Below are positions 14,281 to 19,774 of a stretch of DNA of 64,000 nt, piece after piece. Both the position numbers and the translations under genes were made by a program. Each line of letters starts with the position of its first letter. The stretch's first letter is position 1. Origin of the DNA: Deltaproteobacteria bacterium (GTDB taxonomy: Bacteria > Desulfobacterota > Binatia > UBA12015); NCBI GenBank assembly GCA_046583355.1, contig JAYGCM010000018.1, forward strand, positions 1,302 to 65,301. The letters are read 5' to 3'. Below the pieces are notes generated by a model. That model did not search any database. It had not been told where the DNA came from and saw only the letters and a program-made list of their open reading frames with translations.

Positions 14281-15762
14281 ATGAAGGTTCGTTTTTCGCG
14301 TTTCATCACGCTTCCCTTTGTCTGTCTGGTCGTCACTCTCGCCACGCTCTCGTCGTGCGCCAAGAAGAACGAGCCGCCTCCGGTACCGGATGGGTTGCAA
14401 ATCCTGCTTGAAGATGGCGATTCATTGCCGGGGAATTTCGTGATCCTCTCGATCGAATCCGCCAATATGGCGGCCGATCGCTCGATCTCCTTCATTGCCT
14501 CGCGGACGGGGTTGCCGTCGCTCAACGGTGTCTTCTACCGAACGCCTACAGGCGATATCCGGACGATCCTCACACCGGAGTCCGAGCAGGCCGGCGAGCT
14601 CTCCTTCACCACAGTTCGTAACCTCACCATGGCCCAAACCGGCGAGTTCGCCTTCCAGGTCGGCAACCGTCTCGACGACGACGGGCTCTTCTATTCCGAT
14701 GGCGAGACGCTGACCACGCTTGCCACGACGGATTCGGACGATGTCCTCGACGGCTTCCGGCTTCTCGGGGAATTGCGCGTTGCCAGCGGAGGTTCGGTCG
14801 CCTTCAGCGACGGAACCAGTCCCTGTATCGTGGACTCGTCAGGCGCGCAGGACCGTCTCACCTGCGACCTGCGGCTTCATTACGGGATGCCCGGTGATAT
14901 CCGCACCGTCAATGTTCCCAATGCGATGACCAACCAGAAGGCCAGTACCCTGATCCTGCAGGTCAACGCGAAAGCCGAGTTTGCCGTCGGGCTTCCGGCG
15001 CGCGGTGACGAACCCATGGTCGGCCGAATTCGTGACGGAATCTTTGAAGCACTGCTGACCCGGCGCGAGACTCTGCCGGGTCTGGGTGTCCTCACCGCCG
15101 CAAAGCCTCGCGCGATCGGCGCCAGCGGCGCGATCGGAATCGATGGGAGCTTCGACACGACCGGCGACGGCGACAAGGATACCGTACGCGTTCTCCTTTA
15201 TCGCGATGGCAATATCGAGGCGGCGGCCTCGACCTTGGATCAGACCCAATTGGGCGAGATAGTCGACCTGAACGCGGTTGCTGTCGATGACCGCGACCAC
15301 CTCTACTATACCGCCGAATTTGTGGTGGACGGCGACGAACGTGACCTCTTGCGTGTCTGGGATGGCACCGAAACCCGAGACATCATCTGGGATCGGATGT
15401 GGTACGGGGGCACGGATCCCAAGGGCCGGCGGCTGGCGATCACCGAAATCGTCCAGACTCGCGTCCTGGGCGACGGTACGGTGCTGATCATCGTGACGAT
15501 CGGCTTCTTCGAGGAGGGTACCCGTAAAATCACATCCAAGCAGCTTCTGCGTTGGCAGGACGGAGAGATCACCACGATCCTGCAGTCCAAGAGTCCGATC
15601 GGTGAGGGCACGCGCACCCTGGTCGGCTTCCAGATCGCCGATCTCAACTCGGCGGGCGACCTTCTTCTGATCGGCGAGATCAACGCGAAGTCAAACCGCG
15701 CACTTCTGCTTCTCCCGAGCGACGAAGTCTACGGCACGGCGACAAACGACGACAGCGCTTAG
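14281..15762 (+). CDS. lipoprotein of unknown function (repetitive D/G-rich, possibly beta-propeller-like)
   Basis: Signal peptide with lipobox LATLSS-C. GGAG lies 9 nt upstream of the ATG. Recurrent DG/DGT-containing segments. Confidence 0.55.
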   Translation: MKVRFSRFITLPFVCLVVTLATLSSCAKKNEPPPVPDGLQILLEDGDSLPGNFVILSIESANMAADRSISFIASRTGLPSLNGVFYRTPTGDIRTILTPESEQAGELSFTTVRNLTMAQTGEFAFQVGNRLDDDGLFYSDGETLTTLATTDSDDVLDGFRLLGELRVASGGSVAFSDGTSPCIVDSSGAQDRLTCDLRLHYGMPGDIRTVNVPNAMTNQKASTLILQVNAKAEFAVGLPARGDEPMVGRIRDGIFEALLTRRETLPGLGVLTAAKPRAIGASGAIGIDGSFDTTGDGDKDTVRVLLYRDGNIEAAASTLDQTQLGEIVDLNAVAVDDRDHLYYTAEFVVDGDERDLLRVWDGTETRDIIWDRMWYGGTDPKGRRLAITEIVQTRVLGDGTVLIIVTIGFFEEGTRKITSKQLLRWQDGEITTILQSKSPIGEGTRTLVGFQIADLNSAGDLLLIGEINAKSNRALLLLPSDEVYGTATNDDSA

Positions 15763-15789
15763 ACCGCAGCCTGGAGGCGCGGCCGAGTC

Positions 15790-16824
15790 TCAGCAGCAAC
15801 GAACCTGAACCTTGATCGATCCGGTCGTCTTGTCGGCGGCCGTCGCCAAGGCCGTGGCGAAGTCCGCGAGCATAAAGGAATGGGTCACCAGGGTCCCGCT
15901 CAGCAGCTCTCCGTGCTCGACCAGGAGCGCATGGGCACGCTCGAAGTCGGGGCCTGCGGGACCTTTGCCGTAGCAATTGGCACCATGTAGCTGGATTTCG
16001 CGGCTCATCAGCTCAAGAGCGGGCAGGCGCGGCGCTTCCGCGAAGAGCCCGAGTAGAACAACGCGGCCGCCGGAGCGTGTCCGCTGGATGGCTTCGATAA
16101 GAGAGGCATCGTTGGGGCCACCCACGGTCTCAAATACAATATCAAAGCGCGCGCCATCGCCATCGCCCCCGGGCGCCAGGACCTCGCTCACGCCGAGGCT
16201 GGCAGCAGCCTCGCGCTGCTGCTTTCGCCGCGCCGTAATGGCGACGTGTGCGGCGCCGCTTTGGCGCGCGACGAAGGCCGTGAGGAGACCGATCGAGCCG
16301 GCGCCAATCACCAGAACGCGTTGGCCGTCCACGCCACCGGCAACTCTCTCGGCGTGAAGAGCGACGGCCAAAGGTTCCGCAAGCGCGCCAGCCGCATCGT
16401 CGATCCGCTCGGGGATGAGGTGCAATTGGCTCGTCTGCGCCACCACAAACTCGGCGAAACCACCGGGAAGATGAACCCCGAGAATCTGGAGTTCTTCACA
16501 AAGTTGGCTGTCGCCTCGCTTGCAGGCAAGGCAATGGCCGCAGGTGCGCGTCGCTTCGATGGTGACCCGGTCGCCTCTGTGAAAGCCCGAAGCGGCAGGC
16601 GGATTGCCAGCTATGCGGCCGAGGATCTCGTGACCGGGGCAAACCCCGCTGCGTTTGCCCGAGGCACCGTATAGATGAAGGTCCGAGCCGCAGATTCCGC
16701 AGCGAAGAACCTGGACCAAAATTTCGCCGGCGCGGGGCATAGGAACGGCCACTCCCTCGACTACGATGCCCGTCTCGTGCACGCATACGGCCTGCATGGT
16801 CTGCGAGGTTCCCGGATCTGCCAT
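15790..16824 (-). CDS. zinc-binding alcohol dehydrogenase (MDR family)
   Basis: GHEILGRI, CGHCLACKRGDSQLC structural-Zn motif, VIGAGSIG Rossmann motif. Start taken at MADPG; the alternative MQAVCV lies 30 nt downstream. Confidence 0.8.
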   Translation of the reverse strand: MADPGTSQTMQAVCVHETGIVVEGVAVPMPRAGEILVQVLRCGICGSDLHLYGASGKRSGVCPGHEILGRIAGNPPAASGFHRGDRVTIEATRTCGHCLACKRGDSQLCEELQILGVHLPGGFAEFVVAQTSQLHLIPERIDDAAGALAEPLAVALHAERVAGGVDGQRVLVIGAGSIGLLTAFVARQSGAAHVAITARRKQQREAAASLGVSEVLAPGGDGDGARFDIVFETVGGPNDASLIEAIQRTRSGGRVVLLGLFAEAPRLPALELMSREIQLHGANCYGKGPAGPDFERAHALLVEHGELLSGTLVTHSFMLADFATALATAADKTTGSIKVQVRCC

Positions 16825-16928
16825 GGCGAAAAAGGGTAGCGCGTGGTGCGGCCGACCCCAACCGGCCACCGGACAAAAAAAAGGGGCCGCCGAGTTTCCC
16901 CGGCGGCCCCCTTTCACAGCCTCTCGGC

Positions 16929-17531
16929 TTAGCGACGCTTCTTCGCGCCGGCCTTTTTCTTCTTGGCTGCGGCTTTTTTCTTCGGCGCAGCCTTTTTCTT
17001 GGCCACGGCCTTTTTCTTCGGCGCAGCCTTTTTCTTGGCTACGGCCTTTTTCTTCGGTGCAGCCTTTTTCTTGGCTACGGCCTTTTTCTTCGGTGCAGCC
17101 TTTTTCTTGGCTACGGCCTTCTTCTTCGGCGCGGCCTTTTTCTTGGCTACGGCCTTCTTCTTCGGCGCAGCCTTTTTCTTGGCTACGGCCTTCTTCTTCG
17201 CCACCGTCTTTTTGACGACAGGCTTAGTCGCAGTAGCTTTCTTCTTGCTACCGGCCTTTTTCTTGGCTGCGGCGCGCTTGGCTGCTGTGCGCTTCTTGGC
17301 GGCTTCGAGCTTCTTGCGAGCTGCTTCTTCCGAGAACTTTACGCCACCGACTTTGTAACGGCCGCGAACCTTCGGCTGGTACCGCAGGCGCATGGTGATC
17401 TTGTGCTGCTCGTAATGCTTTTCGCAGCGCCAGCCCTTGAAGGCTTTCTCGCTACAAAGAACACAAAGGCCCATGGCACGGTGCTTGCGCTGCCAGCGAG
17501 CCTGGCGACTGATTTGAGATGCGTCTTTCAT
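16929..17531 (-). CDS. histone H1-like / nucleoid-associated K/A-repeat protein with N-terminal Cys/His motif
   Basis: AGGAGG RBS 5 nt upstream of the ATG. N-terminus has C-x2-C-x9-C-x2-H. C-terminal tail is 6 x KKKAVAKKKAAP plus further AKK-rich sequence; 200 aa. Confidence 0.7.
   Translation of the reverse strand: MKDASQISRQARWQRKHRAMGLCVLCSEKAFKGWRCEKHYEQHKITMRLRYQPKVRGRYKVGGVKFSEEAARKKLEAAKKRTAAKRAAAKKKAGSKKKATATKPVVKKTVAKKKAVAKKKAAPKKKAVAKKKAAPKKKAVAKKKAAPKKKAVAKKKAAPKKKAVAKKKAAPKKKAVAKKKAAPKKKAAAKKKKAGAKKRR
16975..17215. repeat. perfect 36-bp tandem repeat array (~6.5 copies) encoding the KKKAVAKKKAAP repeats
   Basis: Unit ggcgcagcctttttcttggctacggcctttttcttc recurs head-to-tail with only silent or near-silent variants. 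Lies inside the CDS; there are no spacers, so it is not CRISPR. Confidence 0.85.
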
Positions 17532-17991
17532 TTTGTCCTCCTGGACGGCTGTGACCGGATGGTTTCATTTGGGCGTGCCGCGAAACCAAGTTGCAGATGC
17601 CAAGTAGTGCAGGGGGCTGGCAGCTGCGCGCCCGTCATTTAACATTTTGGTACAGGAGTGCCGCGGGCGAGTCAATCTCTGTAACGGTTGGATTCTGTTT
17701 TTTTTCGGGCCTGATTCGGGCGGTCCTCGGTGCGCGAATCCTGCTTGATCGAAGCCTTGCGGGCCCGCATTCGCATACTTGCGCGGCCAAGCAGGTTTTT
17801 GCCCGTATACGGGCTGCGCGCGGACTCTCCGTGGCGCTCGGCAGGAGCGCGGGGGATGAGGGCACGATGCCGCGCGTCGGCCCGCGGTTGCCTGGTATCG
17901 ATTTCGGCTTTCGAGGTTACTCTCGGGCAGGGTCGTGCCGATGTAGAGTGATGACCGGTTGCGCCTCCAGGGCCCTATCCATGTACTAAAC

Positions 17992-18007
17992 CGTGCAAGT
18001 TTGCACG
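17992..18007. promoter_or_regulatory. perfect palindrome CGTGCAA-GT-TTGCACG in the AT-richer intergenic region (candidate operator)
   Basis: 7-bp inverted repeat with 2-bp spacer, ~245 bp upstream of the sulfatase-like gene, inside a 720-bp non-coding region of lower GC. Confidence 0.3.
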
Positions 18008-18250
18008 ATTCGGGTAGGGTTGGAGATCAGAAGATGTAGCCGGGATCGCGCTATTTCCCTTGCAAATTCCGGAAAAACCTGAGAAATCAGCCGCAAAGTC
18101 TGGTTTATTCTTTAGCTGGTCCTGCTTTGGCGGATTCCCTGTGGCTCGCGGGCGCGGGGACACGTACTCTGTGACTCGTTCTATATTCCATCATTCCCGA
18201 AGCTCCCTCTGGGCGCTTCCTTTCTGCTCTGTTCCGAGGATGTCCTTCCC

Positions 18251-19774
18251 ATGACCAACCATTCCCGCCGCGATTCGCTGAATGTGATCGTGGTGTTGCT
18301 CGATACGCTCCGCGCCGACCATCTCTCCTGTTATGGCGCCGGCCGTCGGACCTCGCCGAATCTCGACCGCATCGCGAGCCAGGCGACTCTTTTCGAAAAA
18401 GCGATCTCACCAGCCGCCTGGACGCCACCGGCGCATGCCTCGCTCTTCACCGGCACCTATCCCTCGCGTCACCGCGTGGACCGCAGCAACCTGACGTTGA
18501 GTGCAGACTTGCAACCTCTGCCGGAAGTCCTGCGTCGCGGCGGCTACCGAACCTACGGAGTCTCAAGCAACTACTGGCTCTCGCGAGAAACCTCCTTCGA
18601 CCGCGGCTTCGATGAGTTCGTGCATAGCTGGCAACTGGTCCAGACCGCGGGCACCAATGCGCCGCTGGCGCGTCAGCAGCGCAAACAGGATCTCGGCCTC
18701 GGCGAGTTGGGCGGGCCGGCGGAGACGCCGAGCAAATACGCGCAGCAGGCCAATCGGCTCTTCGAGAAGGCGACCAACAAACTTCGCAACCGCCTACAGG
18801 CCTATGATGACGGCGCCTACCGTGTCGTGAACCAGGTAAAACGCTGGATTCCACGTTGGGTCCGAGAAGAGCAGCCCTTCTTTGCCTTCCTGCATTTCAT
18901 GGAGCCGCATATCCGCTACTCCGCTCCGGGCCAATACCACCTCAAGCACGTCCCCAAGGGCGTCAGCGCCGAGCGTGCGCGCCAGGTGAATCAGGACCCT
19001 TGGCGTTTTCTCACCGGTCAAACCGAGATGACCGAAGAGGATTTCGTGATCCTCTCCGCTCTCTACGACGGCGAGATCAGTTATCTCGACTCCCGCATCG
19101 GGCAATTGCATGAAATGCTCGAGCGCTCCGGCCTGTTGGAGAATACCGTCGTCATCTTCACCAGCGACCACGGCGAGAACCTCGGCGAGCATGGTCTGAT
19201 GGACCATGCCTATTGCCTCTACGACACGCTGCTGAATGTGCCCTTGATCATTCAGGCACCAACTGAATTTACCGCCGGCGAGCGAATCTCGCGGCCGGTT
19301 CAGTCTGCCGATCTCTTCGGCACGATTCTCACGCTGGCCGGGATGGACGAAGACCCGGTCTGGGACCAGGTGCAGGCACGCAACTCGCTGCTGCCCGCGG
19401 AGGTCGCCAAGCGCAATGGGGCCGAGAACTACACGCTGGCGGAATATCGGGAACCACAGCCGCCCTTGTCCGTGCTGCGGCGACGCTTCGAAGGCTTCAA
19501 CGGAGCCTATTTCGATCGATCGTTGCGCATGGCACGGACCGAGACGCATAAATATATCTGGTCGTCGGACGGGCATGCCGAGCTCTATGATCTGACGAAA
19601 GATCCTGGTGAAGAGAAGAATCTGGTCAATATCGAGCGCGATACGGCCGCGCGGCTGGCCGGCGTAATCGACGAAAAGCTCGGGACCTTCGAAGCGCCCG
19701 ACGCCGGCGATACCGGCATCGACCTCGACGACGATACGCTCAAAAAACTCGAGCAATTGGGATACCTCGCGTAA
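18251..19774 (+). CDS. sulfatase-like protein (alkaline phosphatase superfamily) lacking the formylglycine motif
   Basis: N-terminus aligns to arylsulfatases (VLLDTLRADHLSCYG ~ ADDLGYGDLGCYG; SPNLDRIA). The C/S-x-P-x-R position reads AAWTPPAHASLFTG. Metal-site motif TSDHGE is present. Confidence 0.8.
   Translation: MTNHSRRDSLNVIVVLLDTLRADHLSCYGAGRRTSPNLDRIASQATLFEKAISPAAWTPPAHASLFTGTYPSRHRVDRSNLTLSADLQPLPEVLRRGGYRTYGVSSNYWLSRETSFDRGFDEFVHSWQLVQTAGTNAPLARQQRKQDLGLGELGGPAETPSKYAQQANRLFEKATNKLRNRLQAYDDGAYRVVNQVKRWIPRWVREEQPFFAFLHFMEPHIRYSAPGQYHLKHVPKGVSAERARQVNQDPWRFLTGQTEMTEEDFVILSALYDGEISYLDSRIGQLHEMLERSGLLENTVVIFTSDHGENLGEHGLMDHAYCLYDTLLNVPLIIQAPTEFTAGERISRPVQSADLFGTILTLAGMDEDPVWDQVQARNSLLPAEVAKRNGAENYTLAEYREPQPPLSVLRRRFEGFNGAYFDRSLRMARTETHKYIWSSDGHAELYDLTKDPGEEKNLVNIERDTAARLAGVIDEKLGTFEAPDAGDTGIDLDDDTLKKLEQLGYLA

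Follow-up and report, generated by a model that had tools for sequence, protein, structure and literature searches.

The DNA considered here is a stretch of 64,000 nucleotides (hereafter the window), which carries at positions 16929..17531 of its minus strand a coding sequence, stop codon included, for a protein of 200 amino acids, 68 of them lysine and 46 alanine. A preliminary description of this DNA had proposed this 200-aa frame, and in the list of open reading frames it starts with the first ATG downstream of an in-frame stop. That description had also made its case depend on the presence of the frame in related genomes, where it is indeed found at the syntenic position, and more than 100 homologues were recovered. 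Comparison of codons 1-64 between the window and locus L025 yielded 32 identical codons, 26 with synonymous changes only and 6 with non-synonymous changes. Since synonymous changes far outnumber non-synonymous ones, the gene is under purifying selection, and judged by these comparisons 16929..17531 is a real gene under strong constraint.

The assignment of the coding strand rests on homology and selection and not on the differences among the repeat units that encode the C-terminal part of the protein. Synonymous-only variation of the units was considered as a proof of the frame and dropped, because the variable sites are also third codon positions of an antisense open reading frame, 16963..17358(+) (131 aa), which therefore looks 'synonymously' conserved as well, so that the pattern of the units alone cannot give the strand. 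This antisense frame and a second one, 16766..17215(+) (149 aa), are by-products of the Lys/Ala repeat (e.g. 'AFFFGAAFFLAT' six times). A CRISPR array or other non-coding repeat is ruled out, as the units are contiguous, in frame and inside a conserved gene.

The gene is flanked by expression signals of its own, all on the minus strand. A conserved promoter-like sequence, TTGACT-N17-TACCAA, lies about 115 nt upstream of the ATG at 17647..17675 (-35 box 17675..17670, -10 box 17652..17647), and from its position the leader would be some 100-115 nt long. The pattern TTGACN-N17-TAnnnn precedes 13 of the 14 type-1 orthologues (those of the same type as the window gene, see below), compared with a mean of 0.07 loci in shuffled upstream regions; a generic promoter scan did not report the window motif because its rule asks for a -10 box whose sixth base is T. 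The strong AGGAGG ribosome-binding site noticed earlier can be read directly at 17537..17542, separated from the ATG by the 5-nt spacer ACAAA, and the orthologues have purine-rich sites at the same place. Sixteen nucleotides past the stop codon begins an intrinsic terminator (16875..16913) whose G+C-rich stem (12-15 bp) carries a GAAA loop and is accompanied by a U8 run; its predicted fold has a free energy of -45.5 kcal/mol (z = -4.3; 0 of 200 shuffles as good). This hairpin was missed by a consensus terminator scan of positions 16600-18300, which returned 0 sites against 3.9 expected in shuffles, and an Rfam search of positions 15500-19000 gave only sub-threshold matches, which fall on it. 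Promoter-like motif and terminator together indicate that the gene is monocistronic, its adjacency to the following alcohol dehydrogenase gene being synteny across a terminator. From the expression signals alone the protein would be predicted to be abundant.

The order of genes in this part of the window is Gate-family transporter, glyoxalase, 6-phosphogluconolactonase, sulfatases, the gene under study, a Zn-type alcohol dehydrogenase (ADH), a 498-aa protein and nuoF-E-D; it is kept in loci L004, L007 and L013 and partly in others. Among the syntenic loci the N-terminal module of the protein is 79-86% identical, NuoD 81-83% and the other neighbours 44-84%. The neighbourhoods have no functional theme across loci, and this, together with the gene's own promoter-like motif, strong Shine-Dalgarno sequence and strong terminator, fits a stand-alone global factor. 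The divergent intergenic region between the gene and the sulfatase gene is unusually long (719 bp, 17532-18250) and contains the promoter-like motif and, upstream of its -35 box by some 25 nt, an A8 run; nothing further was identified there, the Rfam search being negative and the open reading frames of the region unsupported. On the other side, the ADH frame (15790-16917, minus strand) has its called start, GTG 16917, within the terminator stem, and alignments with orthologues begin at its residues 19-39; its true start is probably ATG 16824 or 16797.

The first part of the protein, residues 1-63 (17343..17531, minus strand), is a conserved module with a net charge of about +14, delimited by alignments, AlphaFold2 models and the signature of its superfamily. 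According to the models and alignments it consists of a helix (residues 9-20) that bears SRQxxWQ, a knuckle hairpin (21-35) and a second helix (37-50), followed by a conserved PKVRGRYKVGG. An AlphaFold2 run with 12 sequences gave a pLDDT of about 90 for residues 10-50; C-x2-C lies on the knuckle of the hairpin, C-x2-H where a helix begins, and a run on the full-length protein returned the same core. These residues make up a putative zinc site, C23-x2-C26-x9-C36-x2-H39 (17415..17465, minus strand), for which ligand conservation provides the evidence: C23, C26 and C36 are present in 86 of 86 diverse relatives, of which 84 have His and 2 have Cys at position 39. A further histidine of the window protein, H43 (three residues after H39), is not conserved across these relatives. 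Ligands that do not vary, combined with an exchange of His for Cys, are what a structural zinc site usually shows, and on these grounds H39 is taken as the fourth ligand and the C3H set would be expected to bind zinc. In the closest syntenic orthologue (222 aa; L013:6001-6669, CBFHUR010000012.1, Binatia Co_bin_149_indstr) position 39 is a Cys (CKRCYERHK), which by its sequence is a natural C3H to C4 swap.

The N-terminal Cys/His motif, whose loss in homologues had been named as grounds for giving up the preliminary description, is thus conserved in every intact homologue, with exchange of His and Cys at the fourth ligand. Its tentative identification as a 'zinc knuckle' in the CCHC sense did not stand: zinc knuckles (PF00098) have the spacing C-x2-C-x4-H-x4-C and not C-x2-C-x9-C-x2-H, there is no zf-CCHC match, and what the model shows is a helix-hairpin-helix module some 50 residues long. 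We define here a Binatia SRQ-WQ C3H family by the signature [ST][RK]Q-x2-[WY]Q-x6-G[LK]C-x2-C-x9/10-C-x2-[HC], which in Binatia members is followed by MRLRY-x-P-x-VRGRY-x-V-G-G and a basic tail; all signature residues occur in the window protein (SRQxxWQ-x6-GLC-x2-C-x9-C-x2-H). The view that this is not a standard annotated family was confirmed by Pfam, NCBIfam and PHROG scans of the window protein and 86 distant relatives, in which no family covered the module. No PDB sequence was matched significantly in phmmer and profile searches, where eL37 and PHF5A came out best (E = 0.17-0.2), and Foldseek comparison of the AlphaFold2 model allowed no assignment either, with best E-values of 2.8 against the PDB and 0.07 against BFVD, the latter for unnamed phage 'double zinc ribbon' proteins. 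A literature search on the Cys/His motif found no papers.

The module is followed by a linker, residues 64-90 (VKFSEEAARKKLEAAKKRTAAKRAAAKKK; 17262..17342, minus strand), which is common to the window protein and its nearest relative P0107 and forms a helix at residues 67-88 in the full-length AlphaFold2 model (pLDDT 58-71). The remainder, residues 91-200 (16932..17261, minus strand), is a polycationic K/A/V/P tail which is predicted to be disordered (pLDDT 46-56, no secondary structure). From residue 67 to the end, 59 of 134 residues are Lys, 42 Ala and 5 Arg, giving a net charge of +61. The core of the tail is an array of six tandem 36-bp units (16983..17198, minus strand), recognized by Tandem Repeats Finder (36-bp period, 6.7 copies, 95% matches, score 419) and by reading of the sequence, each of which encodes KKKAVAKKKAAP. 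Together they cover residues 112-183, and after them comes a degenerate seventh unit, KKKAAAKKKKAG; the array has an internal half-period of 18 bp (KKKAVA/KKKAAP). The six repeats are therefore exact at the amino-acid level, as had been claimed. At the DNA level the units deserve the attribute 'nearly identical' and not 'perfect', both of which had been used, since they are 92-97% identical and all six differ pairwise by 1-3 nt, at four third-codon sites.

The likeness of the tail to histone H1 and AlgP, likewise suggested before, is found in its composition. The protein has the Lys/Ala-rich repeats of high charge that characterize histone H1-like/HC2 nucleoproteins, a likeness that is compositional only: the Burkholderia H1-like family of NCBIfam (NF038053, hist_H1_lk_Burk) matches the tail alone with 23.3 bits against a cutoff of 80, and PF07382 does not match the window protein at E <= 10, although some homologue tails give weak PF07382 matches. 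Almost identical KKKAAPKKKA(A/V)A repeats also stand at the head or the tail of SWIB, HNH_3/AP2, adenylate kinase and DksA-type proteins of unrelated origin (P0252-P0257), and their presence on such unrelated proteins marks the H1-like tail as a portable and widely reused module.

Comparison of orthologues shows that the tail repeats change quickly between lineages. Total length varies from 126 to 228 aa in complete genome loci, and the tail is composed of K/A/V/P in the window clade and of T/R/K/A in most other orthologues, whose tandem units have periods of 12, 15, 18, 30, 36, 45 or 48 nt, always multiples of three. The tail of the L013 orthologue (about 155 aa) is without exact repeats. In P0107 (202 aa, about 77% DNA identity) the corresponding 36-nt repeat is degenerate (3.5 copies, 67% matches), and the protein is about 22 residues shorter than that of the window at the repeat region; P0249 and P0250 (both 154 aa) are nearly identical outside the repeats and different within a KKAxP block. 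These differences indicate that the tail evolves by in-frame duplication and homogenisation. Measured against these relatives the array of the window is a recent amplification, and the same process of in-frame tandem duplication and homogenisation would have produced its six exact repeats.

A search with the first 81 residues as query retrieved 101 proteins at E = 1e-12 to 1e-35 (1e-27 to 1e-35 between the window protein and family members). Nearly all of them are 83-141 aa long, those that bear a name are called 'hypothetical', and their sources are labelled Candidatus Binatia, 'Deltaproteobacteria' or Thermodesulfobacteriota MAGs. All 24 loci found in species-representative genomes belong to Binatia-type MAGs, a class which NCBI taxonomy places in the candidate phylum Binatota. 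Residues 1-63 (63-66) are 79-92% identical across Binatia MAGs, a conservation at the level of NuoD and above that of the other neighbours (44-75%) at the syntenic loci. The exact protein was not found in a collection of 15 billion proteins, which holds no relative above 68% identity, and there was no match in a metagenome scan with the lineage-specific linker, in tblastn searches of GenBank phages and PLSDB plasmids, or in IMG/VR. Several homologous loci come from GenBank entries titled 'Klebsiella pneumoniae', 'uncultured Enterobacteriaceae bacterium' or 'Alphaproteobacteria bacterium' (L015 and L019, CAMBZJ01...; L005 and L020, CAZGUU01...; L003, JAFMJW01...). As they contain the Binatia-specific gene, in L003, L005 and L015 with the conserved downstream ADH gene, these MAG titles look wrong.

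Eight MAGs possess a second paralogue ('type 2') with the core VSRQTLWQRKHRA.GLCVVCSEPAYKGWRCVKHYEQHKIVMRLRYIP.VRGRYDVGG, a less basic tail and a distinct conserved context beside a HIT-family gene; the window has the type-1 copy only. One type-2 copy (L024:5980-6516, JAXLXO010000020.1) loses its frame after CVVCSQP, where unrelated sequence follows, and tblastn recovered the remainder in another frame, so that either an assembly error or a pseudogene is at hand. Another homologue, P0113 (L026:8001-8477, JBQVBM010021417.1), has a K/A-rich head and tail and is located in a one-directional array of small genes with two HNH endonucleases, an SNase-like nuclease, a MazG-like pyrophosphatase and a DUF3310 protein. 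Its gene content suggests that the array is probably a phage fragment, and with P0113 a phage may carry a copy of the host protein. A further homologue, P0112 (L032), adjoins RadC.

Outside this family the module has many distant relatives. An exhaustive profile search returned 401 cluster representatives at E < 0.001, of which about 20 belong to the Binatia family; most of the remainder are proteins 50-100 aa in length with the module signature. In some the module forms tandem arrays (7 copies in P0118, 6 in P0121, 5 each in P0122 and P0166). In others it lies N-terminal to HNH nuclease domains (P0123, P0126 and P0135, by PHROG and Pfam; P0183 and P0239 have HNH-like motifs by eye) or to endonuclease VII (P0138, E = 5.6e-21), and single-module relatives often have C-terminal HTH domains. 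GRP/GRPRK AT-hook-like motifs stand C-terminal in 15 of the 86 relatives, and the invariant VRGRY of the Binatia family is the segment equivalent to these GRP motifs. In the metagenomic protein P0102 (376 aa) two modules precede an IstB-like IS21 helper ATPase (PF01695, E = 3.8e-35); a genuine fusion would tie the module to transposition, the alternative being an artefact of gene calling. P0118, P0121, P0122, P0123, P0126, P0135 and P0138 are homologous to the window module by profile search (E = 1e-13 to 1e-5) and share with it G-L-C-x2-C-x9/10-C-x2-H/C and often SRQxxWQ. They differ in having neither an H1-like tail nor VRGRYKVGG; none is annotated, and they appear to be modular nuclease targeting units or stand-alone proteins of 50-100 aa. 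The domain associations of the relatives all point to DNA, which is guilt by association, given that these relatives are distant (35-45% identity over about 50 residues).

With a probability of roughly 55%, we regard the window protein as a nucleoid-associated, DNA-binding protein composed of a zinc-stabilised module and a polycationic tail that is disordered. The module, about 63 N-terminal residues, would fold round one zinc ion held by Cys23, Cys26, Cys36 and His39 and present a basic surface, with the near-invariant Ser/Arg/Gln/Trp/Gln of helix 1 and the conserved RGR segment, by which it may dock on DNA. The 110-residue Lys/Ala tail would contact the phosphate backbone electrostatically and so neutralise charge and bridge or compact DNA. 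Charge neutralisation and bridging or compaction of DNA are the known effects of histone H1 tails and bacterial H1-like tails, and the protein as a whole might then act as a nucleoid-associated (chromatin) protein. In favour of this reading are the conservation and ligand pattern of the module, its DNA-linked relatives, the disordered tail of +61 and the signs of stand-alone expression. To these can be added the paralogues and the phage-like and RadC-adjacent copies; paralogues and phage-borne copies are known for other nucleoid proteins.

Against it stand the lack of a significant structural or sequence match between the module and any DNA-binding fold, and the fact that the domain associations come from distant relatives only. 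High conservation and a basic zinc module would also fit a protein associated with the ribosome or with RNA polymerase, and K/A-type tails elsewhere bind RNA or associate with polyphosphate granules (PMC12818456, PMC9239181).

Comparison with known systems bears on both parts of the protein. Folded DNA-binding domains with a disordered K/A(/P) repeat tail, the length of which varies by species, are known from mycobacterial HupB/MDP1 and Streptomyces HupS, and a lysine-repeat tail is described for actinobacterial TopA (PMC5714199). The fold of the window module is neither that of HU nor that of a topoisomerase, and its tail is distinguished by unusually exact 12-residue repeats; the HU/IHF family (PF00216) has no Pfam match in the protein, and the AlphaFold2 model is helix-hairpin-helix, which sets it apart from HupB and HupS.

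The closest precedent for the nucleoid reading, by analogy of architecture, is DdbA of Streptomyces (SCO2075), whose H1-like repeats, placed beside a zinc finger, were shown by experiment to bind and condense DNA (PMC3643593). Both proteins are small and combine a zinc-binding folded domain, predicted for that of the window, with tandem Lys/Ala-rich H1-like repeats. The order is reversed, with the tail N-terminal in DdbA and C-terminal in the window protein, and the hosts are Actinobacteria and Binatia, respectively. The zinc domains are unrelated, that of DdbA being a DksA C4 coiled-coil (PF01258) and that of the window protein a C3H helix-hairpin-helix module without a match to the DksA/TraR C4 finger. 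Tandem KPAA/AAKP-type repeats like those of the window tail are also found in Pseudomonas AlgP and PhaF, Chlamydia Hc1/Hc2 (PF07382) and the Burkholderia H1-like proteins (NF038053), all without the zinc module; here the likeness is one of composition only.

For the module itself the Ros/MucR zinc finger offers a lead and nothing beyond. Its motif is C-x2-C-x9-H-x3-5-H, and MucR is a nucleoid-structuring protein. The spacing C-x2-C-x9 to a third ligand at the start of a helix is the same in both; Ros/MucR is C2H2, whereas the window module is C3H and has an extra N-terminal helix, and it lies outside that family, as Pfam gave no PF05443 match and Foldseek matched no Ros structure in the PDB.

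The main rival to a nucleoid role is a protein that binds RNA or associates with the ribosome, which we consider possible at about one chance in a handful. The best profile match in the PDB, non-significant as it is (E = 0.17, 15.5 bits), is to the rRNA-binding zinc ribbon eL37, whose layout of basic helix, LCxxC and C-x2-C is similar, and with that E-value and no Pfam match the module cannot be placed in the eL37 family. Conservation at the level of core machinery, the strong Shine-Dalgarno sequence and terminator, and the KPAA repeats of PhaF, which bind mRNA and activate translation (PMC12818456), would suit such a role as well. It is, however, hard to reconcile a core ribosomal protein with a family limited to one class, with two paralogues per genome and with copies on mobile elements. 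The gene is, moreover, unlinked to ribosomal or translation genes, and the modules of the relatives are joined to DNA nucleases, HTH domains and AT-hook-like motifs and not to RNA-related domains.

Somewhat less probable still is a tethering adaptor, in which the zinc module would bind a conserved partner (RNA polymerase or a replication or repair factor) and the tail only anchor this partner to the nucleoid. Co-evolution with a conserved machine would fit the extreme conservation of the module surface across Binatia (SRQxxWQ, KGWRC, VRGRY), and the occurrence of H1-like K/A repeats on many unrelated domains (SWIB, DksA-type, adenylate kinase, HNH_3) agrees with an anchoring function, for which DdbA, an H1-like domain joined to DksA, is a precedent (PMC3643593). 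Yet tandem arrays of 5-7 modules, and modules placed before homing-type nucleases, in unrelated organisms are more easily explained by nucleic-acid binding than by a lineage-specific partner, and no neighbouring partner gene is conserved, the adjacent Zn-ADH gene lying beyond the terminator. Finally, it is very improbable that the tail serves, like the K/A-type tail of AlgP, which associates with polyphosphate granules (PMC9239181), to bind and position polyphosphate or some other polyanionic inclusion: the tail resembles AlgP and PhaF, localised to polyphosphate or PHA granules, in composition, but the protein has no granule-related domain, neither ppk nor pha genes lie nearby, and the conserved zinc module with its nuclease and HTH associations would be left unexplained.

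Returning to the nucleoid reading, a bolder form of it would make the protein the principal lineage-specific chromatin protein of Binatota, with a new zinc-dependent DNA-binding fold that also serves, singly or in tandem arrays, as a DNA-targeting unit in phages and for homing-type HNH and endonuclease VII nucleases, and with a tail that renders compaction rapidly tunable. We hold this extended version to be tentative and on balance unlikely. What is known is the architecture of a folded domain with an H1-like tail; what is new is the folded module, without annotation or structural match, in a family confined to an uncultured phylum. The window protein involves no conceptual departure from known designs, and by analogy it is best read as a further case of the folded-domain and H1-like-tail design of HupB, DdbA and PhaF.

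To our knowledge no member of Binatota is in culture, and the chromatin proteins of bacteria that we know of come mainly from cultured model phyla; a literature search on nucleoid or histone proteins of Binatota found nothing. The unannotated domain family, with its approximately 400 cluster representatives at E < 0.001, merits an entry in the databases and may account for DNA recognition by some HNH and endonuclease VII nucleases. In the tail, gain, loss and homogenisation of repeats form a clean natural series in which the evolution of disordered polycationic tails can be studied. Should the protein prove to belong to the nucleoid, the recurring design of a folded domain with an H1-like tail would gain a new folded DNA-binding module.
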